Part shown: positions 1-38,100 of the stretch, one piece after another | Layout of the letters: every line of letters begins with the position of its first letter | How positions within the stretch are numbered: the stretch's first letter is position 1 | From: a virus | Strand: one strand, 5' to 3' | IMG/VR virus record: IMGVR_UViG_2802429064_000003 | DNA: 64,000 bases | The notes under the pieces: model-generated | What the model saw: only the letters and a program-made list of their open reading frames with translations | Told to the model about the DNA's origin: nothing | Database searches by the model: none | Translations under genes and position numbers: made by a program

Positions 1-111
1 AGACGCCGTGTGGATCGCGCTCTGCGAGATAGCCCGTCAATGGATAGCAGAGGACGAACGATGAACACGCAGGCCAGGACTGCCGACAACACCAACACAC
101 AGGGGGAACCA

Positions 112-1635
112 ATGAACGACAAGCAGAACCGTGCGCTGGACACGCTGCTGGCCACCGATGCCTACAAGCTAGATCATCGGCGCCAGTACCCGGACGGAAC
201 CGAGTTCGTGTACTCCAACCTCACCGCGCGGGGTACCCGGGTGCCGGGCGTCGATGCCACGGTGTTCTTCGGTCTGCAGGCGTATCTGCAGCGGCTGATC
301 GAAGACTGGCAGGGGTTCTTCGACCTGACCGCCGACGAACTCGAACCGGTGCTGGTCGGATATGAGCGGTTTGTGACCGCGCTGTTGGGGCCGAACACGG
401 TTGGCGTTCAGCACTTCCGCGACCTACACACGTTGGGCTACCTGCCACTGCGTGTCCGGGCGGTGCGGGAAGGATCGCTAGTACCTTTGCGGGTTCCGTA
501 TCTAACCGTGGAGAACACCGATCCCCGGTTCTTCTGGCTGACCAACTACTTCGAGACGCAGTTGTCGGCTGAGCTGTGGCAGCCGATCACCAGTGCCACC
601 ATCGCCTGGAACAACCGCAAGCTGCTCGATGAGCGCGCTGCTGAGTCTGGCGATGAAGACGCGGTGCAGTTCCAGGGCCATGACTTCTCCTACCGGGGCA
701 TGGCTGGAGACGCAGCGGCGGCCGCATCAGGTGCGGGCCACCTGATCAGCTTCACAGGCACCGACGGATTGCCCGCGATCCGGTTCATCGAACGGTTCTA
801 TCCCGGCAACGGCGACGCCTTGATCGGCGCATCAGTTCCGGCGACCGAGCACTCGGTGATGTGCGCCGGCGGACAAGACGGCGAGCTGGCGACCTTCGAT
901 CGGCTGCTGAGCCTGTATCCCGAAGGAATCCTGTCGGTCGTCTCCGACACCTGGGATCTGTGGCGCGTACTCACCGAGTACCTGCCCGCGCGCAAGGAAC
1001 AGAACATGGCCCGCGACGGCAAGCTCGTGGTCCGGCCCGACAGCGGTGACCCTGAGCTGATCCTGTGCGGAGATCCAGCTGCGCCCGAAGGTAGTCCGGC
1101 TCGCAAGGGCGTGGTGAACCTGCTGGCCGAGACGTTCGGCACCGTGACCAACGCAAAGGGGTACCGCGAGCTGGAGCCTCACATCGGCGCGATCTATGGG
1201 GATTCGATCACCCATGAGCGCGCTGACGCGATCACCCGGAACCTGATGGCGCAGGGATATGCCTCCACGGCTGTCGTTTTCGGATTCGGTTCCTACACCT
1301 ACCAGTACCAGACGCGCGACACCTTCAAGATGGCCGTCAAGGCGACATGGGTTCAGATCGACGGTGTCGGCCGGGACATCCTCAAAGACCCGGTCACCGA
1401 TGACGGATCGAAGAAGTCGGCTACCGGGCGGTTGGCGGTGCGACGCGCGATGAGCGGCGAGCCGTACTTGATCGAGCATGCCGATGCCGATCAGGAAGCC
1501 GACAACGAACTGAAGCTGGTGTTCGAGGACGGAAAGCTGTTGCGGCAATACAGCTTCACCGAAGTGCGCGAAACGTTGACCCGTGAGACCGGTGTCTATC
1601 GGCGTTACAGCCGCGCGAGGAGGCAGCAGCCATGA
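112..1635 (+). CDS. nadV: Nicotinamide phosphoribosyltransferase (NAMPT/NadV family). Start moved to the internal ATG at 112, which has an AGGGGGAA RBS; the N-terminus MNDKQNRALDTLLATDAYKLDH matches the NAMPT N-terminal pattern.
   Basis: Long ORF with good codon periodicity. NAMPT-like motifs run throughout, for example GFGSYTYQYQTRDTFKMAVKATW and IYGDSIT. The 4-nt ATGA overlap with the next gene indicates translational coupling. Confidence 0.8.
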   Translation: MNDKQNRALDTLLATDAYKLDHRRQYPDGTEFVYSNLTARGTRVPGVDATVFFGLQAYLQRLIEDWQGFFDLTADELEPVLVGYERFVTALLGPNTVGVQHFRDLHTLGYLPLRVRAVREGSLVPLRVPYLTVENTDPRFFWLTNYFETQLSAELWQPITSATIAWNNRKLLDERAAESGDEDAVQFQGHDFSYRGMAGDAAAAASGAGHLISFTGTDGLPAIRFIERFYPGNGDALIGASVPATEHSVMCAGGQDGELATFDRLLSLYPEGILSVVSDTWDLWRVLTEYLPARKEQNMARDGKLVVRPDSGDPELILCGDPAAPEGSPARKGVVNLLAETFGTVTNAKGYRELEPHIGAIYGDSITHERADAITRNLMAQGYASTAVVFGFGSYTYQYQTRDTFKMAVKATWVQIDGVGRDILKDPVTDDGSKKSATGRLAVRRAMSGEPYLIEHADADQEADNELKLVFEDGKLLRQYSFTEVRETLTRETGVYRRYSRARRQQP

Positions 1636-2285
1636 GATCGATGACCGAATCGAACCTGGCCGTACGCGCAGGAGATCATCCGGTGCACGGCACCTGGCTC
1701 AGCGTGGACGTCGTTGCACTCACCGATGACCCTGAGCCGAAGATCGTGTTGATCGAACGTGCCGGTGCACCGCACAAAGGTGAAATCACCTTGCCTGGTG
1801 GGCTGCTGGCCGCCTGGGAGGGGGAGACCGTCGAGCAGTGCGCGCAGCGCATCGTGCGAGACAAAGCCGGCACTGAGGTGACCGGTGGCGTCGCGGTCGT
1901 CGACGTCGTCAGCGACCCGGACCGCGACGAACGCGGACACACCGTATCTATCGTCGTGGTGGCCCGTGTCCCCGCCGAGGTCAGGGGCGCTGTGCCAGTG
2001 ACCCAGATGCCGGAGGCAATGCCATTCGGCCACACGGCGATCGCCAGGTCGGCGATCCGGCGATTAGAGGAGCGCCTGTTGGTTGACCCGGACACCACAC
2101 GCGCCATGCTCGGCGACGAGACCACCCTCGCCCAAGTTCGCGCGCTGCTCGGTGTCTGCGGCCCGACAACCGCGGGCGCAGCCCGCAAGCGGCTGGACCG
2201 CTCACCGCTATACCGCCGAACCGAGGAGCTGCGTAAGCCAGCGCCAACCGGCCGGCCAGGGCACGTATACCGATTCCTGGTGTAG
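1632..2285 (+). CDS. Nudix hydrolase, likely an ADP-ribose pyrophosphatase type
   Basis: GAGGAGG RBS upstream and an ATGA overlap with nadV. The Nudix box-like segment is GEITLPGGLLAAWEGETVEQCAQRIVRDKAG. NAMPT followed by Nudix is the phage NadV/NatV-like arrangement. Confidence 0.7.
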   Translation: MRSMTESNLAVRAGDHPVHGTWLSVDVVALTDDPEPKIVLIERAGAPHKGEITLPGGLLAAWEGETVEQCAQRIVRDKAGTEVTGGVAVVDVVSDPDRDERGHTVSIVVVARVPAEVRGAVPVTQMPEAMPFGHTAIARSAIRRLEERLLVDPDTTRAMLGDETTLAQVRALLGVCGPTTAGAARKRLDRSPLYRRTEELRKPAPTGRPGHVYRFLV

Positions 2286-2688
2286 GTGCCGCGCCGAGCA
2301 AGGCTACGGTCGCCGATGCGCATAGACGGCGCACGTGTCACCTGCGACCAAACCGCAACGGCTGCAGAGGCTTCACCAGTTGTACGAGCTGACTTTGTCT
2401 GATCCTGAAACGGCGCACAGCCAGGCCGATGACCACCGCGTGCGTTACGTCAACGACCCCTACATCACAGCGGTCTTCGCGCGGTGTGAGGGGCATTACT
2501 GAGGCCGCGACACGCCGAGAAAACCGGCATTTGCCGTCTCAGTTGCTTGTCGGTCATGGGGTGTAAATAGTTAGGCAGTCGGCACGGATGCATGCATCTT
2601 CGACAGGTAGGGAAGCCCGTCGACGATGCATCCACACCGGCATAGATCAGCAACAGCAACTCAACAGCACCAGAAAAGAGGCACTACC

Positions 2689-3339
2689 ATGACCGCTCCT
2701 ATCGCTCCTGCCGCTGTTCCTGTGGCAGCCGCTCCAGCAGCCCCCGCTCCAGTGGCAGCCGCCCCGGTGGCCGCAGCTCCAGCACCGGCCGCTGTTCCTG
2801 GCGCTGCCCCCGTCGCTGCGGCGCCTGTGGCAGCTGCAGCCGTGCCGACCGCCGCTCCTGTCGGTCTGCCGGCGGGTTACGCGGGCGTCAGTTCTGTCGC
2901 ACCCAACATCGGCGTTATCCCGAATAGTGGCGGAGGCGGAATTCCGGAAGAGCACTTCAACAAGCCGATCCTTTTCCGGCTTCTGGGCATCGCTCAGCGC
3001 ACCAGCAAGTACGAGAAGGAGCAGGTCATGGCTCCGACCGTCGACTACATCGTGCTTGATCCGGCCACCGGTCAGTTCACGGAGGCCAAGAACATCACGA
3101 TCATGCAGAAGAACATCCGCAATGAACTGGTGACCTGCTTCCAGCGCGGCGAACAGGCGGTTACCGGTGTCGCGATCAAGGTCCCTACCAACAATGACAA
3201 CGACGCGAAGGTTCTGCGAGCGCTGGACGATCAGAACTCGGGATACGCCGCCGTTGGATACAGCGTCGAGCAGGTGATCGGCTTCCTTCGTGAAGCCGCC
3301 ATCAGCCAATTCCAGTGGTGGACGACGTCCGCCGCCTAA
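2689..3339 (+). CDS. Hypothetical protein with an N-terminal Pro/Ala-rich low-complexity linker
   Basis: ATG at 2689 preceded by an AAAGAGG RBS. PAAPVAAAP repeats are followed by a globular C-terminal domain. A terminator lies downstream. Confidence 0.55.
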   Translation: MTAPIAPAAVPVAAAPAAPAPVAAAPVAAAPAPAAVPGAAPVAAAPVAAAAVPTAAPVGLPAGYAGVSSVAPNIGVIPNSGGGGIPEEHFNKPILFRLLGIAQRTSKYEKEQVMAPTVDYIVLDPATGQFTEAKNITIMQKNIRNELVTCFQRGEQAVTGVAIKVPTNNDNDAKVLRALDDQNSGYAAVGYSVEQVIGFLREAAISQFQWWTTSAA

Positions 3340-8342: not shown

Positions 8343-9288
8343 TTGCCCCTTCTCCCTGATCGTTCCAGCGCACCCATTTAGCGATCGTCTTCATGTCGTG
8401 ATCGGTCATGAACGTTATCCGGCCGCGGATGGATTTCGGAGTGATCACCGTGGTTGATCCTTCGCGCCGGCGCACTACGCTTTTCGTGGTGCGGTCCACG
8501 CGGTCACTGCCGCACACAAATTCCGAATCGCAGGCGCATTGAAAGCTTGAAGTCCAGAGCAGGGGAGAGGCTTGCGGAACCAACGCCATCACAGCGTCAG
8601 ATTCCCAGCCCGGCTCGATGCCCGTACCGGTGAACCCGTGACGGGGAAGTCGATACTCGCGTGGCATATCGAGCTCAGTGAGGATCGGTATGTCTGGCAG
8701 ATCACCTGCCAAGGCATCGGTAAAGGCTCGAAGGACCGCGACATCGGGGTGCGACAGAACCAGCCAGCGCACATCGATCCCAACGCTCACCGCTTCGGAG
8801 ATCAAGCTGCAGAGCTCCGGTGACCAACGCCGACTCCAAGGCTCCAGATACCGAGTTACACCTTGCGTCGCCAAGTCGATCTCACAAGACGCCCCCGGAG
8901 CGCCTGAGCGATGCCGGCTCAACACGTCCTCAAAGCCGAGAATCCAGACAGGACGGGCGGCCGTGAATGGGACCATGCGCAGCGCTGGGAGCGTTACAGC
9001 TGGGCAGGGCCGCCCGTCAACTCCGCGGTGATCTGCCATGACCCACGCCTCGTGGTCCAGGCCGCCGTACCACGCAGTCCTCACAAGCCGGCACCATGGG
9101 CAGATCGCAGGGCCTTGCGGAGAGAGGGCCAAGTGCCAGTGGTTACCGTCTGGGCAGGGAAAGGGATACCACGGCTGCCGAATGCGACCCTGAAACTCCG
9201 CTTCCAGCTCGCGCTTGCGGGCCTCTGCACCGGCGTCTGCGGCCTTCCGTGTTGGGAATTCGGGCTCGGCGCTGTAACGGCATTTCAC
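8329..9288 (-). CDS. Hypothetical protein with a Cys/His motif (HWHL...CPWC...AWYGG)
   Basis: GTG start at 9288 forming a GTGA overlap with the upstream gene. The motif WYPFPCPDGNHWHLALSPQGPAICPWCRLVRTAWYGG is paralogous to the one at 14659-14973. Confidence 0.5.
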   Translation of the reverse strand: MKCRYSAEPEFPTRKAADAGAEARKRELEAEFQGRIRQPWYPFPCPDGNHWHLALSPQGPAICPWCRLVRTAWYGGLDHEAWVMADHRGVDGRPCPAVTLPALRMVPFTAARPVWILGFEDVLSRHRSGAPGASCEIDLATQGVTRYLEPWSRRWSPELCSLISEAVSVGIDVRWLVLSHPDVAVLRAFTDALAGDLPDIPILTELDMPREYRLPRHGFTGTGIEPGWESDAVMALVPQASPLLWTSSFQCACDSEFVCGSDRVDRTTKSVVRRREGSTTVITPKSIRGRITFMTDHDMKTIAKWVRWNDQGEGANGSC

Positions 9289-12956: not shown

Positions 12957-13910
12957 CTATCGAGCGGCGGCATTGTCGGAAACTGCTGCCGAGTCCCTCG
13001 CGCGCTCTTCTGCGCGCTGCAGCAGGCGCCAGATTCGGCCGGCGTAGGCGTCCTTGGTGATCGGTGGATCGGCGTTGGCTGCAAGCTCGCTCATTCTGGC
13101 TTCCGGGTTCTCCAGGCGTAGTCGCGCCGCCTCTGCCAGCTGTGGTGGCACGTCATCGCCGAGGATTCGGAGCGCACGCCCCACTGATTCGGCTTGGTCG
13201 TGTGCCGCCTGGATGAACCTGGATCTGTTGGCAGCCTCGAGGTTCTCGACGCGCAGCGATTCGCGGTGCGTGCTCATGAGGGTGTGCGCAGCTTCGGGTG
13301 CTCCCACGGCTATGAGGAATCTACCTATCTCCGGGGTTTTGCGAATCTCGAATACATCGACAGATGCTCCGTCGCGGGTGTATTCGCGCATCTGAGTCTG
13401 TACTCCGTGGCGGCGGGCGAACCCACCGAGTGCCATCGCCGCTGGGGCAGTCGGGCACACAACCTCGAGGCGCGGTCGGCGCAGCTCGTGGGTGATGATC
13501 TGTCCGCGTGCCAAGAACGCACCGCGAAGTGCGGCTGCCGCGTCAGCGCGTGTGCCGGCGACCACCGTCGGCGCCATCCCTACCACCGGTCGACCCGACG
13601 GGCTGAGCAGGCCCACCTGCACCGCTAGGTTGTGGGCGCGATGTATCTGGCGCACCTTGAAGGTTCCCGCCGAGAGCTCGAACGCGCGCGGCGCCGCATC
13701 GAAGAGCTTGGTGATCTCGTTGCGCAAGAACACCGCGGCTTCGCGCGTATCGAGCTCGACGTCGATCCAGCAGCGGCGGCCCTCACTGAAAAACCCGCCG
13801 CCGAAGCGCAGCATCGCTGAGACCTGCGCACGTCTGGTCGAAGGCTTGTCGTGGACGGACGGAAGTACACGATTCAGTTCGTATTTGACCTGTTGCGTCA
13901 GTGGATTCAC
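12957..13910 (-). CDS. WhiA-like DNA-binding protein (degenerate LAGLIDADG scaffold plus C-terminal HTH), paralog 1
   Basis: N-terminus VKYELNRV...RAQVSAMLRFGGG and C-terminal DPPITKDAYAGRIWRLLQRAEE match WhiA signature regions. Confidence 0.6.
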   Translation of the reverse strand: MNPLTQQVKYELNRVLPSVHDKPSTRRAQVSAMLRFGGGFFSEGRRCWIDVELDTREAAVFLRNEITKLFDAAPRAFELSAGTFKVRQIHRAHNLAVQVGLLSPSGRPVVGMAPTVVAGTRADAAAALRGAFLARGQIITHELRRPRLEVVCPTAPAAMALGGFARRHGVQTQMREYTRDGASVDVFEIRKTPEIGRFLIAVGAPEAAHTLMSTHRESLRVENLEAANRSRFIQAAHDQAESVGRALRILGDDVPPQLAEAARLRLENPEARMSELAANADPPITKDAYAGRIWRLLQRAEERARDSAAVSDNAAAR

Positions 13911-15809: not shown

Positions 15810-16805
15810 TTACGCACCTGTCAGGAGTCGGACGGCCCCACCGTCGGGGCGCTCTGAATCGAACTCGTCCTGCTCTTCTCCGGCGGCGCGGCGGTCGGCC
15901 ATGATGAGCAACCGCCGCAACCGGCCTGCGACAGCGTCTTTGGTGATGGGCGGCTGGGCGAGCTGCCCAAGCTCTTCCAGAGATGCCTCGCGGTGATCCA
16001 GGCGAAGCTGTCCGGTGTGCGCCAGGTGCTCGGGTGCTTCTGCCCCCAAAATCGCTAGTGCCTGCTTCACCTTGGCCGCCGTGGCTGCCGCTGCTCGTGC
16101 TGATCTACGCGCGTTGGCGTCATCGAGGTTGACCAGCCGGATTGCGGTCGACTGCATTGCGCGCTGAGCGATTCGCCGCTCCCAGGAGATGCGCGACTCG
16201 TCTGCACCGATTCGGGTCAAGAGCGTTCCGATGCTGTCATGGTCGTGAATCACGACACGGTCGATGCCACGAGCGGTGCGCACCATCGACTGAACACCCA
16301 GCCGGCGCGCGCAGCTGGTCAGCGCGAATGCCACTTCGGGGTTGGGGCAGCTGATCTCCAGCGCGCTGGATCGGCTCGGTCCGATCAATGATCCAGCGAC
16401 CATGAAGGCGCCGCGCCAGGCTGCGGCGACCTCGCCCGGTGATCCGCCGACCACCATCGCGGGTAGCCCGGTGACGGGCCGGCCGCGCAGGTCGATGAGA
16501 CCAGTCTGTAGGGCGAGATCACGCCCACCTTCGCTCACGCGCACCGTGTAACGGGCACCACGGCGCAATCCGGTTTCGCTGTTCACGATCACTACTGCTT
16601 TGTGGCCATACAGTGCGGCGATTTCCCGGCGCAGGTACCGCGCGACGGCACCGGTGCCGACCTCGATGTGCACCGTCAGCCCGGTACGGGAGACACGAAG
16701 CTCACCAGCGAGTCGGACGATAGCTGCGACCTGAACACGCCTGCACCCCTGGTGTATTGATGTGGCGCGACTCAACTCGTCACGCACTTCCTGCGTCATC
16801 GACAT
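15810..16805 (-). CDS. WhiA-like DNA-binding protein, paralog 2
   Basis: MTQEVRDELSR...VAAIVRLAGE at the N-terminus. C-terminal LGQLAQPPITKDAVAGRLRRLLIMADRR closely matches the WhiA C-terminal HTH signature. Confidence 0.6.
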   Translation of the reverse strand: MSMTQEVRDELSRATSIHQGCRRVQVAAIVRLAGELRVSRTGLTVHIEVGTGAVARYLRREIAALYGHKAVVIVNSETGLRRGARYTVRVSEGGRDLALQTGLIDLRGRPVTGLPAMVVGGSPGEVAAAWRGAFMVAGSLIGPSRSSALEISCPNPEVAFALTSCARRLGVQSMVRTARGIDRVVIHDHDSIGTLLTRIGADESRISWERRIAQRAMQSTAIRLVNLDDANARRSARAAAATAAKVKQALAILGAEAPEHLAHTGQLRLDHREASLEELGQLAQPPITKDAVAGRLRRLLIMADRRAAGEEQDEFDSERPDGGAVRLLTGA

Positions 16806-16837
16806 CGGTCCTCCTCCTGCGTTTCGTGGTCGGTCTG

Positions 16838-18811
16838 TCAAGCTGCGGTTTCAACGGCGCCGGGGCGCTGGAAGGCCGGGAGCCACTTCTCGGCTTGGGC
16901 GAGTGCGATCAGGTCGCTGAGGTCACGGCGGTCGAGCTGGCCGGCGTCGGGGACTCCCAATTGCGACGCGAAGTCGATCTGCGCATCGGAGGACTTTGCG
17001 CGGGGGAGATCACGCATGTGATCGGGAAAGATATTCTGCGCCAGCGCGTCTGCCTCTGCCAGGCTCAGCCCTTGCAGGTAGCACCGGGGACCCGGTTCGG
17101 TCCACTGCCCATCGAGGCCGACCCAGAACATGCGGTGCACCGTGCTGTCGAAGAATCCGAAGGCCCAATCACGGCCCGCGACGGTCCCCGCGACACCACG
17201 CATATCGGCGAGCATCAGTACGCCTTTGTGGCCGTTGGCGCGGTACACCGAGCGCACGAGGCCCCGAGGGTGGTGTACCCAGCGGATGGTGGAGGTGCGC
17301 TGCGACCAGCTGGAGTCGCCTCGCCGCTGTTTTCCGGCGGCTAGGACGTCGCCGGTAACCGGATCGAAAGTCCGCAGCGGATCTACCCGGTGCAGGTCGC
17401 ATTCACAACCGCAACGGCACAGTCCGAAGGTCAGCGTGCATGTGCATGTGCAGGGGACACTGGACACGGGGTCGCTGGCTGGGCCTGACTCAGACGACTC
17501 GTTCGCACACGTGCAGTTGCATTCACAACCTATTCCGGTGCAGGAGAAGTCGCACTCGTCACTTGTGCAGGGCTGCTGGCAGAAGCAACCGAACCCGTCT
17601 TCGTCGCTCTCCGGTTTCTCGCGGTGTTCGGGGTCCAGGCGGGTCTTGACGATCAGCCCGAGGGATCCGGCGCCCACGAGGTCCACGACGAGAGCGGTGT
17701 CTTTGACGGTTCCGTCTTCGAAGGTGTGTGGCCGCAGTGCGCGCCCTACACATTGGACAAGCCTGGACTGGCTGCGCGTCGGTCTGGCCAGCACGACCGC
17801 TTCGCAGCGAGGGAAGTCTGCTCCCTCGGTGAGCACGTCGACCGTCACCAGCACCTGGGTGCTCCCGTGTCGGAATCGGTTGTAAATGCCGTTACGGACG
17901 CGGGTTTTGGTCTCTCCGACGACCACTTCGGCGGACACGCCTTGTTCGACAAGGGACTTGGCTAGTTGCTCGCAGTGCAACAACGAAGCGCCAAAGACGA
18001 TGGATGAGCGGCCCTCGGTGCGTGTCAACACCGCCTCGACAGTGGCGTTTAGCGTGGTCTCTCGCATCATCGCCTCTTCGGCGACCTCGTCGGAGATGTC
18101 TCCGCCACTACCGGAGGACAGCTTCGAGACATCAAGTTCCGGGAGTTCAACGGTCACGCCTTCTGGCGCGATCAAGAAGCCGTTTTCGATGGCCCAGTTG
18201 ATGTCCCGCTCGAAAACCACTTCTTCCCAGATGGTCCTCAAGGCGGGCTCGTCCCTGCTCGGGGCGTGGCGGATCATCGTCGCGGTGAATCCGGCGCGGC
18301 GCGCGCCCAGAGCAGTGAAGTGGTCGAGCACCTTGCGGTAGGTTCGGGCGGGCGCGTGGTGGGCCTCGTCGACGATGACGAGGTCGCGGTGTCCGATTCT
18401 GGTTAGGGCCGCCTCAGTCTGTAGTGATTGCACTGTGGCCGAGACAATCTGAGCAGTTGGGTCATCGCGATTGCCTCCTCCGATCAGCGAGGGGACGGGG
18501 CCGGCCGGGTTCACCGCTGAGACGGCAATGGCCATCTGCTTGATCAGTTCGTCGCGGTGGGCCATCAGCAGCACCCGGCCGCTGTTGGTCACCTCACGGC
18601 GCGCCAGCTCTGCGATGACGGTCGATTTTCCCGTCCCGGTCGGCAGCACGACCGCCGGTCCCACGACGCCACGGTTGTAGGCAGCGCATACCGCGTCGGC
18701 GGCTTCGATCTGATACTCGCGCAGTGGGCGTGGCTCGTTGGTTGCAGGGGCTGCGACAGGGAAAGCCATCTGCTCTTGATCTGCGGCGGGAGCCAAGTCG
18801 GTGACTGTCAT
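16838..18811 (-). CDS. Superfamily-2 DEAD/DEAH-type DNA helicase (ResIII-like) with a Cys-rich central segment
   Basis: Walker A VLPTGTGKST, motif II VIVDEAHHAP, a helicase C-terminal domain, then CFCQQPCTSDECDFSCTGIGCECNCTC. Confidence 0.75.
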   Translation of the reverse strand: MTVTDLAPAADQEQMAFPVAAPATNEPRPLREYQIEAADAVCAAYNRGVVGPAVVLPTGTGKSTVIAELARREVTNSGRVLLMAHRDELIKQMAIAVSAVNPAGPVPSLIGGGNRDDPTAQIVSATVQSLQTEAALTRIGHRDLVIVDEAHHAPARTYRKVLDHFTALGARRAGFTATMIRHAPSRDEPALRTIWEEVVFERDINWAIENGFLIAPEGVTVELPELDVSKLSSGSGGDISDEVAEEAMMRETTLNATVEAVLTRTEGRSSIVFGASLLHCEQLAKSLVEQGVSAEVVVGETKTRVRNGIYNRFRHGSTQVLVTVDVLTEGADFPRCEAVVLARPTRSQSRLVQCVGRALRPHTFEDGTVKDTALVVDLVGAGSLGLIVKTRLDPEHREKPESDEDGFGCFCQQPCTSDECDFSCTGIGCECNCTCANESSESGPASDPVSSVPCTCTCTLTFGLCRCGCECDLHRVDPLRTFDPVTGDVLAAGKQRRGDSSWSQRTSTIRWVHHPRGLVRSVYRANGHKGVLMLADMRGVAGTVAGRDWAFGFFDSTVHRMFWVGLDGQWTEPGPRCYLQGLSLAEADALAQNIFPDHMRDLPRAKSSDAQIDFASQLGVPDAGQLDRRDLSDLIALAQAEKWLPAFQRPGAVETAA

Positions 18812-23067: not shown

Positions 23068-25863
23068 TTGACTGGCCGCGTGTCCGATGAGCCCAACGTG
23101 CCAGTGGTCGATCTGCCGCGTGTCAACGCGGTCGAGTTCCAGTTCTATGACCACACGGTCGGGGCGCATCTAGTTACCGCTGACAAACAGATGGCGAGGT
23201 GGATCGACGAGCTTCGGTCGGCGCCGCCAGCCGCGGTGGCCGTCGATATCGAGACCCATGGTCTTGACGTCAACAAGTTCACCATCACGTGTGTCACCGT
23301 GGCCTTCGAACTCGGTCAAGACATGGTGGCGCTGTTGTTCGATCCTCTGCGCCGTGCTGAACACCGCGGGATGCTGGCGCGGGTCTTCGACCACGCGGAC
23401 CGCCTGGTCTTCCACGGCGCCAGCTTCGACATCGCTCCGCTGTACGCCCACAGGCTCATGACGAAGGCGCATATTCGCAAGCTCGGCGACACGCTGGTCG
23501 CCGCGCGGATGGTGGGGACCAATGCCAAGGCCGGCCGCACACTCGAAGACCTCGCGAACGTGTTCCGCGTGATGGACGACGATCGCACGTCGATGACCGA
23601 AGTGTTCTCCGCTCGAGGACTTAAGAAGGACGACGGTTGGCGGGGAACTGATATCGACACTCCGACCTATGTAGTGGGTGCGTTGTCCGACACCGTCGCG
23701 ACAAAGCGCCTTTGGGGTGTCCCCGGCGTTAACGGACACGGCATCATGGCCAAGGCCGCTCGCTACCTGACGGCCCCGTCAGCGGGTTTCGGCGGCCATG
23801 GTGTTCTCACAGCCACTGACGCTGAAGCACTCGTCGAGGACATCCAGCGCGTCAACGCGATAGTGCTGGAGCGGACGGCACGCGGATACGCGGTCGACAA
23901 AGAGTTCCCCCAGCGTTTCCTTGAAGAGACTGCTGAGCAGACGCGGGCTGCCGCAACGACTCTCGCTGAGGCGGGAATCCGCCCGGGCAATGCCGCTGAC
24001 CTGGTCAACACCCTCGATGCCCGCGGTCTGCTGCACCAGCAATGGCCGCGTACCGACACAGGCCGCCTGAAAGCCGATAAGAAGGCCTTGGAGGTCTTCA
24101 CCGGTGAGCACATCAGTGACGCGCTGAAGAACCCGCTGGTGATGGCGCACCGTGCTGTTTTCGACAACGAGAAGGACCGCGGCTATGTCGAGAAGGTGGT
24201 CGAAAATGCAGGCCCCACAGGGCGCCTACATCCAGAAATCAAGATTTTGGGCGCCAGCGCCACCGGCCGCATGTGCCTGCCCGAGAATCAGCGGCTGCTG
24301 ACCCGCCGGGGCATCGTGTCTGTGAACGAGATCCGGACCGGCGATCGAACCCTGGATGCAGACGGGCGCTGGACGACGGTGCGGGCGGTGCACCGATACA
24401 GCGATGCGCCGCTTCGCCGTTACACACTCGATGATGGAATCGAACTGATTTGTACACCCGAGCACCGCTGGGTTACCGAGAACACGGCCGGTAAGCGCAA
24501 GGTTCAGCCTCTTGACCGTGCGCGGCAATCCGACCACCTACGGCTCACGCCGCCTATTACTCCCGGGGTCTGCGGAGGCGGGAACTCCATGACCGCTCCG
24601 CAGCACGCCGCGTACACCATCGGGCGTGTCACTGTTCAGCTTGCGCGACAACGCACCGGCGAGTTGTCCGATGCTCTGTGCGGTCCAGCCGAGACGCGGC
24701 GCGCGACGGTGACTAGCCTGCGTGAGCGCTGGCAGACCGAAGGTGAAACCTGCTGGGTACCCGAGCATGCGCCACGAGACACCGCGCTGCACTCGGTGTG
24801 CGACAAGTCTCTCGATGAGCTTTGGAACATGCTGGAGGGTGCGAGCCACTACGCCACAAACGTCAGTCACGCTGGTGTCACCGTGCTGCCCACACCCAAT
24901 AGACGCTACGCCGAGGCTTTCGCGCTGGCGGGATATCGTCTCGGTCTGCGATCCCTGATCTTTGACGCGCCTGCAGGGGCCGCCGTCGTGCTACATCGAG
25001 GGCGCTCCAGCCTGGCCAACATGGTTGTGAGTGATGCCGGAGAAGGCGATGTGTGGTGTGTGACAACTGATTCGGGCACATTCACCGCATGGGGCGAACA
25101 TGGCCCGTACCTGACGGGCAACAGTGCGAGCAAGCCGGAAATTCAACAGTTTCCCAAACTGGCACGTGGAGTCATCGTCGCTGATTCGGGTGCCGAGGGC
25201 TGGATTTCGGCGGACTGGAAATCGATCGAACCCGTGGTGCTGGCGACTGCGGCCGGAGACAGGCAGTTCATCTCCGACATGCGCGCCGGCATGGATCCGT
25301 ACGAGCCGGTGGGGCAAGCAGCCGGTATTGACCGCAAGCTTGCCAAGCGAAAGATGCTTGCGGACATGTACGGGCAGGGGCTCAAAGCCGCTTCGCTGCA
25401 ATATGGTTGGTCACTGGATCAAGCTCGGTTCGTTCAGAACACGATCCGCGGATCGCTGCCGATTCTGTACAAGCTGATCGACGCACTCAAGGCGCAGTCG
25501 CAACGATTCGGGCACGTGACCACGCTTACTGGCAGGGTGGTCGATCAGAAGTTCAGCTTCTACGAGGGCGGACGTCTGGTGAGCGATGTGGCACAACGCA
25601 TTGCGCCCAATCACTTCTGCCAAGGCTCGGCGCTGGACATCATGCACTACGCGATTCTCGAATTGGATCGCCGCGGGCTATCTGATCACGTCCACCTATG
25701 GATGCACGACGAGATCGTGGCGGACAAGGAGATCGCCGAGGAGTTGGCGGAAGTCATGGCCACGCCGCCCCCGTTCCTTGAAGCGGTGGCGCAGTACCAC
25801 GGTATCGAGGCGTTCTTGGCCGTTGACGTCAATGAGATGGGCAGCCGATGGGAGTACGTGTGA
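23068..25863 (+). CDS. polA: Family A DNA polymerase (Pol I-like, 3-prime to 5-prime exonuclease plus polymerase domains) interrupted by an intein
   Basis: Exo motifs VDIETHGL and [11 protein letters not shown]. Polymerase motif A region TGRM|C...N|[11 protein letters not shown] is split by a 283-aa insertion. Motif C region LWMHDEIV. Confidence 0.8.
24274..25122 (+). other. Intein (283 aa) inserted in polymerase motif A (TGR|intein|S..PxxQxxP)
   Basis: Starts with Cys in a block A-like [20 protein letters not shown]. Block B is ICTPEHRW. Ends ...[24 protein letters not shown] followed by +1 Ser. The penultimate residue is Gly rather than His, so splicing competence is uncertain. Confidence 0.65.
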
Positions 25864-26138
25864 GTAAAGAGAATTCGTACGCGCGGCTGCACGGGGCACT
25901 CGAACGCGGAGGACACCATGGGGCATCCGCGACCATGCCGACGCTGGCGGAGTTGGCCACCAACCACGTCGCGCATGGCGTCTTGGTCGGCACGAACTTC
26001 TTTGGGATCAACACCGCCCCCATTGCGCTCAACGAGTCCGACCACGTGCGTATGTGGGTACGGGCCGCGGCCAGGAACCGAGAGCGCACTGTCAGCGACA
26101 CGACGCATCACGAGCAGTGGATAGAGGAGACGTCATGA
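25857..26138 (+). CDS. Small hypothetical protein
   Basis: ORF overlapping the polymerase stop. Weak evidence. Confidence 0.3.
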
Positions 26139-31511: not shown

Positions 31512-32339
31512 TCAGTAGCCGACACCGTGGCCGACGCCGCGCGCCATGAAGGTGACCAAACCGGTGCCGGTGTGCAGATCAACGTGGTAGCGCACGGCGA
31601 TGTAGCGCCATGCCGCGGCGATATTGGCCACCGGGTCGTAGATGAACGTGGAGGTGCCTGGGGCATGATTGGCTGCGAAAGTCCCTGGGACAGTCTGCAT
31701 GAGGCCGCGCGAGCTTCCAGCTGGTGCGCCGTCAGGCTGCCGGGCGCCCCAGGCGTTGGAATCTCCGCGGTTCACGGCGTTGGTTGCGCCGCCGGATTCC
31801 CCGCCCATGATCGTGCGTGTGGCGGTGTCGAATTGCCCAAATAGCCGTGGGTTTACGCCGGCGGCCTGCAACCCGGCCGAGATGTCCGCATCGGTGACAT
31901 GGGGGACAGGGTGTGCGGTGTAGATGATCTTGGACTTATCGATCGCGGCTGCCTCGGTGACAGGTCTGGTCGAAGCAACCGGCACGAGCACCAGGGGACG
32001 TGACGGAGCAGCGCCGGGTATCGGTTCCTCTACCGTGATCGGTTCTTCGTCGCGTGCTGCATCGTCGACTGGCGGTGCTTCGTCGACAGGTTCGGCGGCG
32101 GTCTCTTCGTCTGCCGCCTCGATGACCGGCTCAGGCGCAGACTCTTCGTCGACGAGATGGTGCTCGACAATCGGTTCGGTTGCCGGTTCGGTTCCGCAAT
32201 CCGGCATATCGCAGGTGATTGTCGCCACATCTGAAGTCGGATCCGATGCGGGGTCAGCATGCGCGACGCCGCCTCCGATCGCAGCGATTGCCGCCGCGGC
32301 GACCATCGCCGACAGAACTGGACGCTTACCTGTGGACAT
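31512..32339 (-). CDS. Secreted lytic transglycosylase (SLT domain) protein
   Basis: Signal peptide, acidic linker, then GGESGGATNAVNRGDSNAWGARQPDGAPAGSSRGLMQTVPGTF, the SLT catalytic motif region. Confidence 0.6.
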   Translation of the reverse strand: MSTGKRPVLSAMVAAAAIAAIGGGVAHADPASDPTSDVATITCDMPDCGTEPATEPIVEHHLVDEESAPEPVIEAADEETAAEPVDEAPPVDDAARDEEPITVEEPIPGAAPSRPLVLVPVASTRPVTEAAAIDKSKIIYTAHPVPHVTDADISAGLQAAGVNPRLFGQFDTATRTIMGGESGGATNAVNRGDSNAWGARQPDGAPAGSSRGLMQTVPGTFAANHAPGTSTFIYDPVANIAAAWRYIAVRYHVDLHTGTGLVTFMARGVGHGVGY

Positions 32340-34099: not shown

Positions 34100-35104
34100 A
34101 TGACATCGACCTTGTGCCTGGAATCGAGGCCAACTGGGCTGGTTCCGAGCGAAGATGTGAGGGCAGAGCCCTCGTCAGATGCGCGCGAAGACGCGCGCTC
34201 GGCGAAGTTCAGCCGAGATGCCGTCCGGTACCTCCTGGAGTACATCGCTGCGAATGGTCACGCGCATATCCCGCGTGACTATGTGTGCGCAGATGGCTTC
34301 CAACTCGGTGCACGGTCCAACAACTGGCGGCGGCGAAAGATCAGTCCGGAGTTCATAGCGAGGCTTGACCGCGTGAAGCTCTGGCGGTGGACTGCCGAAG
34401 AAGCGCGATGGGACGCCCGCTTTGCGCTACTAACGGAATACATACAGGAACACGGTGACGCACGTCCGCCCGCCAGATGGCGCTCGGTTGATGGATTCCG
34501 TCTCGGCGGCTGGGTTGCCCGTCAGCGCGCCTTGTATCGTGAAGGTCATCTCGATCCGGATCGCACGGCTCGGTTAGAGGAGTGCCCCGGTTGGGTCTGG
34601 GAGCACCCGACGAACTTGCGATGGGCCGAGGCTTACAAACTGCTCTGCCGATACGTGGACGAGCATGGGACTGCAGCTGTTCCCTTGTCATACACCCACT
34701 CCGAGGGATACAGGCTCGGGGATTGGGCCGCCGCCCAGCGGTACTACTTCAAGACCGGAAGTATGAGCAAGGAACGAGCCCAGCTGCTCGAATCGCAGCC
34801 AGGGTGGTCTTGGACACGAGAATCAGCACGCTCAGATGAGCAGTGGGAGTGTGGATTCAATCATCTGCTCTGGCTTGTCGGACAGACAGGCTTCGCTGAT
34901 GTCCCCGCTGGGTATCGCACTCCAGATGGATTCCGGCTGGGACCATGGGCGTACTCGCAAAGGTCCCAGCAGCGCGACGGAACGCTAGATCCAGAAAGAG
35001 CTGCACGCCTCAACGCGATACCCGGATGGACCTGGCACATCGAGCCGAGCCGCAAAATTGCTCCACCGTATTCCACGCTGGTGTCCGCAGGAGCTTCGTC
35101 GTGA
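34100..35104 (+). CDS. Helicase-associated (HA) domain repeat protein (4-5 HA repeats, no helicase core)
   Basis: Repeated W..W...F..L..Y...HGH..VP......GF.LG.W...QR......L...R...L...PGW.W units. GGGAGTG RBS. Confidence 0.6.
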   Translation: MTSTLCLESRPTGLVPSEDVRAEPSSDAREDARSAKFSRDAVRYLLEYIAANGHAHIPRDYVCADGFQLGARSNNWRRRKISPEFIARLDRVKLWRWTAEEARWDARFALLTEYIQEHGDARPPARWRSVDGFRLGGWVARQRALYREGHLDPDRTARLEECPGWVWEHPTNLRWAEAYKLLCRYVDEHGTAAVPLSYTHSEGYRLGDWAAAQRYYFKTGSMSKERAQLLESQPGWSWTRESARSDEQWECGFNHLLWLVGQTGFADVPAGYRTPDGFRLGPWAYSQRSQQRDGTLDPERAARLNAIPGWTWHIEPSRKIAPPYSTLVSAGASS

Positions 35105-38100
35105 AAGGGCATGTCAAGGCCACCACCGTGCCCGCTCCAAAACTGCGTGTGAGGCCACCAAATCCACTTCGCCAACACCAGATCGACGCCCTCACGGCTG
35201 TGCAGACCGACGTGGCGCGTCAACAGCTCATCATGGCGTGCGGAACAGGGAAGACACTGACCGGCCAGCATGCCGTGGCCAAGCTACTGGGCGAGCAACC
35301 CGGAACAGTCCTGGTTCTGGTTCCGACACTTAGCCTGTTGGAGCAGACGTTCCAGGCATGGGCCGCGTATGCTCCGTTCGGATTCGACTCGATCGCCGTA
35401 TGCTCTAAGTTGACCCCTGCTGAAAAGCGAAGCGTCGGTACAGAGGATGACACTGATACCGGTCAGCTTGCGTTGGCAGCCACAACCGAACCAGCGGAGC
35501 TCGCGGACTTCCTGGCTGGCCAAGAACGGACGACGCGGGTCGTGTTCGGCACCTACCAGTCACTCGACACAGTGATCGCTGCCCATGCCGATCACGGCGC
35601 AGAGCCGTGGAGCGTGGTCGTCTGCGATGAAGCGCATCGCACCGCAGGAGCCAAGGCCAAGCCGTTCGCGCGAGCGCTTCACGATGAGTTCGTGCCGGCG
35701 CGCCGGCGACTGTTCCTGACAGCAACGCCGCGTGTGCATACCGTGTCGGAGAAGGAATCAGGGTCGGAGAAATCCACGTTGCTGGCGTCGATGGATGACG
35801 AAACGCTCTACGGCAAGCAGGTTTATACCCTGTCGGTGGCCGAAGCGATTGAGAAGAACATTCTGTCGCAGTACCGCGTCGCGGTAATCGGTGTAGAGGA
35901 TGCGGAATTACAAGCCGCGGTGCGGACGCTCGAAACGGTGAAGGTAGCAGGAAGCGACCTGTCGCTTGATCACGTCGCATCGATCGTGGCGCTGTCGAAG
36001 GCGGCGCAGCAATACGGACTGCAGGCGATCATCGCCTTTTTCAACAGCATCAAGTCCAGCAAGAGTTTCCGTGACGCCTTCAACACGGTTCACGAAAGTC
36101 GCGTTGGTGAGCACCTTGCCGAAGGGGTTGCCGAACACATCGACGGCGCCATGAAATTAGAGAAACGCCGTGCTGCTCTGACACGGCTAGCGCAGAATCG
36201 CGACAATGGTTTCTACCTCGTATCTAACGCACGGTGCTTGTCTGAGGGTATTGACGTACCGGTTTTGGACGCAGTCTTCTTCGGGGAGCCTCGCAGCAGC
36301 CAGATCGAGGTCGTGCAGTGCGTCGGCCGCGCGATCCGCAAGAACCCCCGTCACGACAATCCGGCGCTGATTGTGATTGGGGTGCGCATCGGGGCCGGTG
36401 AGGACATCGAAGCGGCAGTCGACGAGTCGCAGTTCAAGAAGATTCGACAGGTTATCGCGGCGTTGTCCGACCACGACCCACGCATCGCCGAGGCCGCCCG
36501 CGTTCTGGCCCGAAGCGGAGGATCCAACCCGGACGATTCGGTCCACGAGAAAACCGACTGGGCCAAAGATCTTCTTGCATTGGAGGTCCCGGAGGCACTG
36601 CTGCATAACGGGTTCGGGCTGCGGATGCTGGACGTTAGAAATCGAGACTGGGAGAAGCGGTTCGCGCAAGTTTCTCAACACGCTCAACGTACCGGAAACG
36701 TGATTTTTGCAAATACGGACCCATGCGGCAGCTGGATAAACAAGCAGCGCATGAAATTCCGTGAAGGAAGACTACCAGTGGAACGTAGTAGGCGGCTTGA
36801 GTCCCTGCCTGGATGGAGCTGGGATGTACTTACTGATCAATGGGAGATGCGCTTTGTAGAAGTTTCTCGACGGGCTCAACGTGTTGGAACCGTGGCGTTT
36901 CCACACGGAAGCCCGCAGAGTGCGTGGGTGACCAATCAGCGCAAAGCGTTCAGTGACGGAAGGCTACCAGTGGAACGTAGTAGGCGGCTTGAGTCCCTGC
37001 CTGGATGGAGCTGGGATGTACTTACTGATCAATGGGAGATGCGATTCGCGGAGGCCTCTCAACGCGCTCAACATGTTGGCAACCTGGCAGTTTCGAGAAA
37101 CCAGCCACTAGGTAAATGGATAGCTAATCAGCGTCGGCGTTTCCACACTGGTTCACTTTGTGCTGAACGAATCAAGCGGCTTGAGTCGCTGCCAGGGTGG
37201 AGCTGGGATGTACTTACTGATCGGTGGGAGAAGATGTTTGTGGAGGTTTCTAGACATGCTCACCTCAGGGGCAACGTGACATTTCCAAGCAAAGATCCGC
37301 GAGGTACTTGGGTAACTAAACAGCGCAAATCCTTCCGCGCCGGCACGCTGTCTGCCGAACGCATCAAGCGTCTAGAGGCTCTGGCCGGCTGGAGTTGGGA
37401 TGTGATCTCGGCTCAGTGGGAGAAGATGTTTGTGGAGGTTTCTAGACATGCTCACCTCAGGGGCAACGTGACATTTCCAAGCAAAGATCCTCGGCAGGTG
37501 TGGGTATCCCAGCAGCGGACAACGCACCTCCGTGCGGGCACGTTGTCTCTTGAACGCATCAAGCGGCTTGAGTCGCTGCCCGGGTGGAGTTGGGATGTGA
37601 TCTCGGCTCAGTGGGAGCAGCGGTTTGCGGAGGTTTCTAGACATGCTCACCTCACGGGCAACGTGACATTTCCAAGCAACGATCCTCGGATGCTATGGGT
37701 ATACACGCAGCGGAAGTCTTTTCAGGTCAACAAGCTTTCTGCTGAACGAATTAAGCGGCTTGAGTCGCTGCCCGGGTGGAGTTGGGATGTACTCACCGAT
37801 CAATGGGAGCAGATGTTCGAGGTGATTCACCACCATTCCCGTCTAACCGGGCGGATTGCGTTTGATAGAAGGGACACACGCACGTACTGGATTCAGGTTC
37901 AGCGCCAACGTTTCCGTGCGGGCACCTTGTCTCCTGAACGCATCAAGCGTCTAGAGGCTCTGTCCGGTTGGACCTGGGATGTTCTCGCCGACCAGTGGGA
38001 GCAAAGTTACGCCGAAGTATGTCGTTACGCTGAGCGCACCGGCAACGTGACTTTTCCGGACAGGAACCCCCTGCGAAGCTGGGTAAGTCGGCAGCGCAGA

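Follow-up and report, generated by a model that had tools for sequence, protein, structure and literature searches.

What do two overlapping genes, one for a protein of the NAMPT superfamily and one for a Nudix-domain protein, contribute to the DNA that carries them? The question is raised by a stretch of 64,000 nucleotides (hereafter the window), recorded as a virus in IMG/VR (IMGVR_UViG_2802429064_000003). An earlier note, made from the sequence alone, had described at positions 112-2285 a phage gene pair joining a NAMPT to an ADP-ribose (ADPR) pyrophosphatase, with the host perhaps supplying NMNAT, as a route of NAD+ salvage that might counter NAD-depleting immunity. We found that the pair is functionally coherent but had been mis-assigned in detail, and that it combines three things described before, namely NAD+ reconstitution pathway 1 (NARP1), the cyclic ADPR (cADPR) glycosidase RyDEP, and regulation by NrtR. 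Taken as a whole, the locus is probably an ADPR-switched NARP1 operon with an NrtR-type repressor, residing on an integrated element of Mycobacteroides abscessus.

The pair consists of two open reading frames (ORFs) on the plus strand: ORF1 ends at 1635 and has candidate starts at 10, 61 and 112, and ORF2 spans 1632-2285. Position 1 of the window corresponds to position 8370 of a locus, designated L005, on a 116.8-kb contig of M. abscessus GCA_003582645.1, with 100% identity across the 12,285 bases that the two share. Positions 61-2285 hold the distal half of an operon of four translationally coupled genes, adps - rydep - namat - nrtR, which is cut by the window edge upstream of ORF1 and is preceded by a Macro-domain gene. 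An ATGA start/stop overlap with a preceding GAGGA was found at four of four junctions (FtsK-like/Macro, Adps/RyR, RyR/Namat and Namat/NrtR); at positions 61-64 the RyDEP stop overlaps the Namat start ATG61, with the GAGGA Shine-Dalgarno sequence about 7 nt upstream. ATG112 is likewise preceded by a good Shine-Dalgarno sequence, GGGGGAA. Because the ATGA and GAGGA pattern is common to all junctions and the public gene call agrees (start 61, 524 aa), ORF1 more likely starts at 61 than at 112. The coupled pair and its end at 2285 were found as previously described, and the start of the feature probably has to be moved. The features are as follows, in window coordinates.

2-64, plus strand: 3' end of the RyR-domain (RyDEP-homolog) gene; frame 2 is open to the TGA at 62-64, and the full gene, L005:8023-8433, encodes 136 aa
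61-1635, plus strand: putative Namat gene; 524 aa from ATG61, 507 aa from the alternative ATG112
1288-1320, plus strand: Namat selectivity-clamp helix motif GSYTYQYQTRD, at residue 410 of the 524-aa form
1632-1635, plus strand: ATGA start/stop overlap between the Namat and NrtR-like genes, read from the sequence
1632-2285, plus strand: putative NrtR-family transcription regulator of 217 aa, with a Nudix-like sensor domain and a C-terminal winged helix
1797-1874, plus strand: degenerate Nudix box, residues 56-81 of ORF2 (GG-LLAAWE-GETVEQCAQ-R-I-V-R-D-K-A-G-T)
2022-2276, plus strand: predicted winged helix-turn-helix of ORF2, residues about 131-215, from the secondary structure of the model and alignment to 3gz5 and 2fml

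ORF1 and its partners upstream

ORF1 matched Pfam NAMPT_N (PF18127) and NAPRTase (PF04095), NCBIfam PRK09198 (516 bits) and phrog_448 (E = 9e-180), and it has features of the type II phosphoribosyltransferase fold, which Namat has as well. Lan et al. (NAR 2026) distinguish Namat from Nampt by a clamp motif, GS-X-Φ-X-Φ-X-Φ-TRD with X aromatic, that the latter lacks. We found this motif in ORF1 as GSYTYQYQTRD, and also in 20 of 20 mycobacterial homologs examined. When ORF1 was compared with all PDB sequences by phmmer, the SpβL1 Namat scored 489 bits (9W5W/9W5X) and 9KE8 scored 424 bits, as compared with at most 248 bits for the Xanthomonas or mammalian Nampt. Against the 'nicotinamide phosphoribosyltransferases' of actinophages such as LeBron, Thibault, OneUp and DyoEdafos, ORF1 shows 56-59% identity (56% to the DyoEdafos Namat), and in these phages the namat-type gene always comes after a 'ribose-phosphate pyrophosphokinase' gene. 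Such pairs of Prs-like and NAMPT-like genes constitute NARP1, in which Adps turns ADPR into its pyrophosphorylated form (ADPR-PP) and Namat couples ADPR-PP with nicotinamide to give NAD+ (Osterman et al.), and 97% of Adps genes neighbor a Namat gene. The DyoEdafos Namat, together with the Adps of the same phage, produced NAD+ in vitro from RyDEP-treated 2'cADPR (bioRxiv 10.64898/2026.05.28.727677). Two genes upstream of ORF1 lies a homolog of Adps (L005:7139-8026). Taken together, these comparisons suggest that ORF1 is best read as Namat, the second enzyme of NARP1, and not as the NAMPT that had been proposed. Since Namat yields NAD+ directly from ADPR-PP and nicotinamide, and not via nicotinamide mononucleotide (NMN), no NMNAT would be required, and the supposed reliance on the host enzyme becomes unnecessary. 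No match to the NMNAT family was found among the ORFs scanned by Pfam or precomputed annotations, a scan that took in part of the ORFs between 28.8 and 51 kb of the window.

The Prs-like protein encoded at L005:7139-8026 shows 35-37% identity to actinophage Adps, with scores of 108-128 bits, and has the stretch YLVVDDICDGGGTF in common with it, as compared with only 19-35 bits against solved canonical synthetases of phosphoribosyl pyrophosphate (PRPP). This suggests that the gene is adps, although the 35% identity on which the assignment rests weighs against it. The next gene encodes an RyR-domain protein (Pfam RyR match) with 75% identity to the DyoEdafos RyDEP, gp78; the catalytic dyad H75/D117 of RyDEP is intact in it, and its last 21 codons fall inside the window. 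According to the preprint cited above, RyDEP is an RyR-domain cADPR glycosidase, and the ADPR that it forms is convertible to NAD+ by the DyoEdafos Adps and Namat. The sole known substrates of RyDEP are Thoeris immune signals.

The operon thus resembles the Adps-RyDEP-Namat operon of DyoEdafos (gp77-79) in the order of adps, RyR-domain gene and namat, in the identical point of insertion of RyDEP between the other two, in its overlapping stop and start codons, and in the clamp motif, the RyDEP dyad and the Adps PP-loop stretch DDICDGGGTF. It differs in having an NrtR-type regulator as its last gene and a candidate palindromic operator in front, and in being carried by an integrated element in which no virion genes were seen. 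As compared with the phage proteins, Adps and Namat are only 35% and 56% identical, and they are closer to those of the mycobacterial loci L007-L016 (48-84% and 70-92%), most of which lack RyDEP. Combined with the bacterial NrtR-regulated 'prs-nadV' operon, which is considered below, the DyoEdafos operon displaced the NadV/NatV pair of Vibrio phage KVP40 as the closest analog.

Macro-domain ADPR-1''-phosphatases (Adpp) are a known accessory of NARP1 that counters RES-type NADases. In the NARP1-AP of Vibrio phage Gary, which comprises Adps, a Macro-domain Adpp and Namat, the Macro-domain gene adjoins the NARP1 genes as it does here; unlike in phage Gary, the Macro gene of L005 lies upstream of the candidate operator, in the preceding transcription unit. 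The best sequence matches of the Macro protein were MacroD/AF1521-like (55 bits). Its similarity to the Poa1p-type ADPR-1''-phosphatase was marginal (E = 1e-3), and its candidacy as a clear Adpp ortholog was downgraded on that account.

ORF2 as a candidate regulator of the NrtR family

In the 217 aa of ORF2, Pfam recognized only NUDIX (residues 23-117, 38 bits), followed by about 100 more residues; the protein has no NMNAT domain, as the earlier note had observed. An AlphaFold2 model calculated from 24 homologs (pLDDT 86) has a Nudix domain of the alpha/beta/alpha fold and then a winged helix of three helices and a beta-hairpin. The secondary structure of this part of the model comprises helices at 131-148, 153-160, 166-176 and 181-190 and strands at 194-201 and 210-215; the helix 181-190 is the putative recognition helix, and the wing bears GRPGHVY. 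When the PDB was searched with Foldseek, the top 11 matches of ORF2 were full-length factors of the NrtR family (AraR, 5bs6/5deq; Shewanella NrtR, 3gz5/3gz6; 2fml), with E values of 1e-11 to 1e-13 over about 210 columns, and these were followed by NadQ and then by plain Nudix hydrolases. A phmmer search of the PDB aligned the whole of ORF2 with Shewanella oneidensis NrtR (3gz5) and two separate pieces of it with 2fml; the C-terminal FxH and GRPxxxY motifs fall within these alignments.

The Nudix box of ORF2 reads G57-X7-E65-X7-R73-I-V-R-D-K-A-G-T, as compared with the canonical GX5EX7REUXEEXGU. REUxEE is changed to RIVRDK, the spacing from G to E is 7 instead of 5, and two of the three catalytic Glu residues are replaced, by I74 and K78. 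Across the 24 homologs of ORF2, I74 is nearly invariant and K78 invariant. The E-to-K change is shared with the catalytically dead NrtR of Shewanella (RKLAEK) and with that of M. smegmatis (RQUxEK), neither of which has ADPRase activity; ADPR releases both from their DNA, and it was the effector in all three NAD-related NrtRs tested. The stretch SDPxRDERG is kept in ORF2 and is invariant in its family. NCBIfam gave weak matches to NadM-Nudix ADPRase and to 'ADPR responsive transcriptional repressor', and the gene clusters with NAD metabolism as the last gene of adps-rydep-namat-nrtR. With a Nudix box so degenerate, ORF2 very probably has no enzymatic part in the pathway. From its sequence and its modeled fold, it is best read as a sensor/repressor of the NrtR family and is not likely to be the ADPR pyrophosphatase that it had been taken for. 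A regulator also suits the pathway, since a working ADPR pyrophosphatase would use up what Adps needs, and a sensor would leave it intact.

Several observations weigh against this assignment. ORF2 has no match to Pfam PF21906 (WHD_NrtR), NUDIX being its only match at E <= 0.1, whereas canonical NrtRs match PF21906; its score for NCBIfam NF050029 is 27.5 bits against a cutoff of 400; and despite the full-length fold match, its identity to Shewanella NrtR is only 24-26%. Since the curated NrtR models miss it, ORF2 would belong to a divergent branch of the family. In addition, NdnR of C. glutamicum, an NrtR homolog, binds DNA better with NAD+, and the sign and the ligand of regulation by ORF2 are therefore not guaranteed. 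The NrtR of M. smegmatis (MSMEG_3198) is similar to ORF2 in coming from the same genus group, in its architecture and in the decay of its Nudix box (RQUxEK there, RIVRDK here). It is nevertheless a different paralog, which controls nadA/B/C from a divergent promoter via GTTTTCGA-N7-TCGAAAAC, and it was not listed by the structure searches with ORF2.

It is conceivable that ORF2 regulates the operon but senses another ligand, such as 2'cADPR/3'cADPR, ADPR-1''-phosphate, ADPR-PP, or NAD+ as a co-repressor. Ligands have diverged within the NrtR family, as represented by arabinose for AraR, the top fold match, and by the NAD+ effect on NdnR; the operon handles several ADPR derivatives via RyDEP and Macro, and ORF2 is a distant member of the family. 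We nevertheless regard this as unlikely, because the Nudix domain has its greatest similarity to the ADPR-specific group of NadM-Nudix and NrtR and keeps SDPxRDERG, ADPR was the effector wherever NAD-related NrtRs were tested, and all branches of the operon converge on ADPR.

The properties of ORF2 also bear on what ORF1 does. In the NARP2 of KVP40 (NadV and NatV), a NAMPT-superfamily enzyme and a Nudix-domain protein likewise take part in NAD+ salvage, and the Nudix domain of ORF2 shows weak similarity to the Nudix half of enzymes of the NadM/NatV type. A NARP2-like variant can therefore be formulated, in which ORF1 is a true NAMPT making NMN from nicotinamide and PRPP, ORF2 an active ADPRase supplying ribose-5-phosphate, and host NMNAT completes the route. 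Such a variant is in keeping with the generic family models ('nicotinamide/nicotinate phosphoribosyltransferase' for ORF1, 'NUDIX' for ORF2), with the annotation of ORF2 as 'ADP-ribose pyrophosphatase' in the sources, and with the upstream Prs-like gene, which would be expected if PRPP were needed. Namat-type enzymes, moreover, keep some nicotinamide-PRPP activity in vitro according to Lan et al. (NAR 2026), so that some synthesis of NMN is possible, a point that counts against an exclusively ADPR-PP-dependent ORF1. However, the pair differs from that of KVP40 in lacking an NMNAT domain, in joining its degenerate Nudix box to a DNA-binding domain, and in combining the Namat clamp with a partner Adps. 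The Nampts of NARP2 belong to a clade of their own and prefer PRPP, and 94% of those in phages are accompanied by NMNAT, of which none was seen among the ORFs scanned here. The similarity of ORF1 to solved Namat is double its similarity to Nampts, the Prs-like protein groups with phage Adps and not with PRPP synthetases, the loss of two catalytic Glu residues and the altered spacing of the box are as in inactive NrtRs, and an ADPRase would compete with Adps for ADPR. We therefore consider the NARP2-like variant highly improbable, and we prefer the assignment of ORF1 as Namat and ORF2 as its NrtR-type regulator.

The region upstream of adps and its conservation in mycobacteria

Macro and adps are separated by 60 bp, from the stop of the one to the ATG of the other, and this gap contains a 43-bp palindrome, CCCTACACTACTTACGTACA-AAA-TGTACGAAAGTAGTGTAGGG, with 20-nt arms that are 95% complementary; it lies at L005:7088-7130, some 1.24 kb before the window begins. 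The palindrome begins 10 nt past the Macro stop codon, and its right arm overlaps a -10-like TAGGGT element located 7 nt before the adps ATG. Its 21-bp center and its left arm had no second match in the window even at three mismatches, and the center was unique in L005. The palindrome is a candidate NrtR operator; since nrtR is the last gene of the operon, the operon would then autoregulate.

A conservation survey with one genome per species, in which neighbors were located by tblastn, returned 49 loci. Namat immediately preceded the NrtR-like gene in 22 of them, and a Prs-like gene preceded Namat in 21 of these 22; in the exception, L010, a contig end cuts the locus. The 22 loci are from mycobacterial assemblies, except for a metagenome bin labeled Leucobacter (L025) and one Actinomycetota (L011). 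Among the surveyed loci, Macro and RyR genes were found only in L005 and L007. When the region upstream of adps was compared in 19 loci plus L005, each clade had a conserved element of its own. A clade-specific palindrome, ending 7-24 bp before the adps start, was present in 15 of the 19 loci, and the four clade-C loci had a conserved, half-degenerate block at the same place instead. All 19 had a TANNNT element 6-7 nt before the ATG, with the palindrome or block beside or overlapping it. This is the arrangement expected of mycobacterial leaderless promoters. Between L005 and L007 the palindromes differ by a symmetric T:A to C:G change in both arms, and the putative recognition helix of the regulator varies by clade in step with the sequence upstream of adps.

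Some features do not favor an operator. Most NrtR operators have a GT-N7-AC core and are usually 21 bp long (Rodionov et al. 2008); this core was not found in the mycobacterial palindromes, whose centers are AC-N5/6-GT around an A/T-rich core, and the 43 bp of the L005 palindrome are twice the usual length. As RNA, the palindrome would form a strong hairpin (-34.4 kcal/mol, z = -7.3), which could also act on the upstream Macro transcript. Scans for E. coli-type promoters and for terminators, which are not designed for mycobacterial promoters with only a -10 element, found nothing on the plus strand at the palindrome or after ORF2. One could thus suppose that the palindrome is an RNA hairpin terminating or stabilizing the FtsK-Macro transcript, or a repeat element, and that ORF2 regulates something else or nothing; the predicted hairpin, its location 10 nt after the Macro stop, the missing core and the empty promoter scan all agree with this. 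We judge it quite unlikely for the following reasons. The palindrome has no T-tract and the terminator scan was negative. Equivalent conserved sequences are found equally far from the adps ATG where no co-directional gene lies upstream, including the four loci L017-L020, where the upstream gene is divergent and the palindrome therefore cannot be a terminator. The sequence co-varies with the recognition helix and overlaps the TANNNT conserved in all compared loci. It is unique within 72 kb, and so is not a dispersed repeat. Finally, the phage adps-namat operons (DyoEdafos, Aegeus, LeBron, Thibault and OneUp) have neither a regulator nor an intergenic palindrome. The roles of operator, which we favor, and of RNA hairpin may be compatible with each other.

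A precedent for this arrangement exists in bacteria. The NrtR regulons described by Rodionov et al. (2008) include '#prs-nadV-nrtR' in Acinetobacter and 'nrtR-#prs-nadV' in Shewanella and others; NrtR bound the Shewanella prs-nadV promoter and ADPR antagonized the binding, and the dedicated Prs was called unexplained. In the locus of Shewanella sp. W3-18-1 (L061:5001-8443), the regulator is 96% identical to the crystallized NrtR, and two TAGTGTC-N5-GACACTA-type sites lie upstream. We found that the 'NadV' of this locus carries the Namat motif, as GSFTYQHVTRD, and is 53% identical to ORF1 and 51% to the DyoEdafos Namat. This suggests that the classical NrtR-regulated prs-nadV operon looks like NARP1. 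The operons of S. oneidensis (SO1979) and Acinetobacter resemble the one described here in having a Nudix-winged-helix regulator with a degenerate box beside a Prs-like and NAMPT-like operon, and palindromic promoter sites. They differ in that the operon here has the additional RyDEP and Macro genes and lies on a mobile element, and in that the Shewanella operator (TAGTGTC-N5-GACACTA) is about 21 bp long, as compared with 43 bp and no GT-N7-AC core here.

The identities of the cassette to L007, which has the same added genes, are 84% (Adps), 92% (Namat) and 82% (NrtR); the corresponding values for L008-L016, which lack RyDEP, are 48-56%, 70-79% and 53-68%. The phage versions are farther (Adps 35-37%, Namat 56-59%). 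In contrast, RyDEP is 75-78% identical to proteins of cluster-L-type phages. Judged by these identities, the cassette is a mosaic relative to its homologs. On a 344-kb Mycobacterium avium plasmid (NZ_CP076860.1, 2095-2745), a homolog of ORF2 with 52% identity adjoins a Namat-type gene labeled 'nicotinate phosphoribosyltransferase', and the regulated cassette is therefore also plasmid-borne.

The carrier and the proposed role of the operon

Gene calling in the window relied on a codon-usage score. The large ORFs of the window encode DEAD/ResIII helicases (two with multiple HA repeats), a family-A DNA polymerase, FtsK/SpoIIIE- and AAA-type ATPases, DEDDh exonucleases, RNase H, two WhiA-like proteins and a tyrosine integrase. 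Since the integrase gene (60949-62157, minus strand) abuts ordinary chromosomal genes, the element is integrated. No virion or packaging genes (terminase, portal, capsid, tail) were found in the large ORFs, in about 50 kb of precomputed Pfam annotation or by a PHROG scan, the 20-29 kb of contig upstream of L005 lying outside these scans. Megablast of window pieces against 50,697 phage records returned only 800 bp (prophiGD05-1) and 50 bp (adps of phage Tourach), and against plasmids 8% coverage of a Tsukamurella plasmid. No relatives of ORF2 were found in IMG/VR, and its phage matches by tblastn were limited to three, all weak. These results do not support the phage origin assumed before, and the carrier is best read as an integrated mobile element of M. 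abscessus, not a recognizable phage.

Other genes of the element were noted in passing. A 340-bp non-coding gap separates the operon from the next gene downstream of ORF2 (2626-3339, plus strand), which has a long N-terminal Ala/Pro-rich repeat (AAPVAAAP...) and no family match. WhiA-like genes (LAGLIDADG_WhiA and HTH_WhiA) at 12957-13910 and 15810-16841, both on the minus strand, lie next to a DEAD-box helicase gene (16838-18811), and a small PPE-family ORF of 92 aa (25860-26138, plus strand) directly follows the family-A DNA polymerase gene (23068-25863). The sole match of a phage-structural type in the PHROG scan was a 275-aa protein (31512-32339, minus strand), the last 100 residues of which match an internal sub-domain of mycobacteriophage tape-measure proteins; this sub-domain is probably a cell-wall hydrolase motif. 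Two paralogs of about 1,100 aa (34945-38205 and 42562-45885, plus strand) combine a ResIII/DEAD helicase core with 4-8 HA (PF03457) repeats, and their helicase part resembles type IIG and type I restriction enzymes in PADLOC. When ten large or unknown proteins of the window were examined with PADLOC for an NADase defense system, only generic helicase, ATPase and DEDDh matches were obtained. An exact-protein look-up of 39382-41442 gave no record, probably owing to a different start in the public call. The integrase and the adjacent DEDDh/RNase_T genes (56835-62157; loci L059 and L060) recur in another M. abscessus strain (L059), where they adjoin chromosomal genes directly and the rest of the element is missing, so the island may be composite or may represent tandem integration at one site. 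A tRNA scan for an attachment site found no tRNA at the junction.

How would such an operon work? At rest, a dimer of ORF2 (NrtR) would occupy the palindrome at the -10 element of the leaderless adps promoter and keep the operon silent. Cleavage of NAD+ by TIR, SIR2 or other NADases, or linearization of cyclic ADPR signals by RyDEP, would cause ADPR to accumulate, and ADPR bound in the degenerate Nudix pocket would release the repressor, allowing Adps, RyDEP, Namat and more NrtR to be made. Adps would then pyrophosphorylate ADPR with ATP to ADPR-PP, which Namat (ORF1) would join to nicotinamide to give NAD+ directly, and the Macro protein may add ADPR derived from ADPR-1''-phosphate or ADP-ribosylated substrates. 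As ADPR falls, repression would return, the inducer being the pathway's own substrate. After arrival in a naive cell, expression of the operon would precede the build-up of the repressor.

Whom the operon serves is a separate matter. The beneficiary may be the element, during transfer or establishment, or the host cell, in recovering from NADase toxins or stress, and the acquired RyDEP argues for counter-defense. The same parts and mechanism could instead serve housekeeping or stress recycling of NAD+, for example after the action of sirtuins, ADP-ribosyltransferases or NADase toxins. Many mycobacteria have the adps-namat-nrtR core on the chromosome, and the Shewanella locus of nrtR, Prs-like gene and gene with the Namat motif is chromosomal too; bacterial NARP1 is of unknown role outside mobile elements (Osterman et al.; Lan et al.); and carrying a repressor implies a lasting stay in the cell and not a lytic program. 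However, the core here and in L007 has gained a RyDEP close to the cluster-L-type mycobacteriophage versions, with only Thoeris signals as known substrates, and also a Macro gene, a known counter-defense addition to NARP1; the operon is carried by an integrated element, and the M. avium plasmid bears a related cassette. For these reasons we regard a purely housekeeping function as somewhat unlikely. The theme of the earlier note, NAD+ salvage against NADase-based immunity, is in this respect strengthened by NARP1 and RyDEP, whereas the mechanism that it gave, NAMPT with an ADPRase, was wrong.

A more specific hypothesis, which we put forward tentatively and hold to be somewhat less than an even chance, is that NrtR serves the mobile element as a sensor of immune activity: ADPR arising from TIR/SIR2/RES NADases or from RyDEP would de-repress RyDEP, Adps and Namat, which would destroy the signal and rebuild NAD+, and the 'prs-nadV' operons of 2008 would likewise be Adps-Namat operons. 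If they are, ADPR as their inducer would be explained. The combination of NARP1, RyDEP and NrtR regulation on a non-phage element does not appear in the literature searched, in which NrtR and Namat/NARP1 are mentioned together only as separate items; Osterman et al. give only a hint of a link between bacterial NARP1 and ADPR-dependent transcription. If the immune-sensor hypothesis is true, this would be the first transcriptionally gated NARP1, and it would be located on a non-phage integrative element of a clinical pathogen.

The public labels 'nicotinate phosphoribosyltransferase' and 'ADP-ribose pyrophosphatase / MutT' are both probably misleading. Correcting them would affect not only the ORF2 cluster, which occurs on at least 284 contigs, but also the similar cassettes of many mycobacteria. 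Published accounts treat NARP1 as a phage pathway without regulation and call its presence in bacteria unexplained; here it seems to be coupled to a sensor of its own substrate, which suggests a model in which resident elements or cells deploy NAD+ reconstitution only while NAD+ is being cleaved. RyDEP has so far been reported from phages only, and its presence on an apparently non-viral element suggests that anti-TIR counter-defense occurs in other mobile DNA. M. abscessus is a target of phage therapy, and an operon neutralizing NADase-based abortive infection could alter its susceptibility to therapeutic phages.

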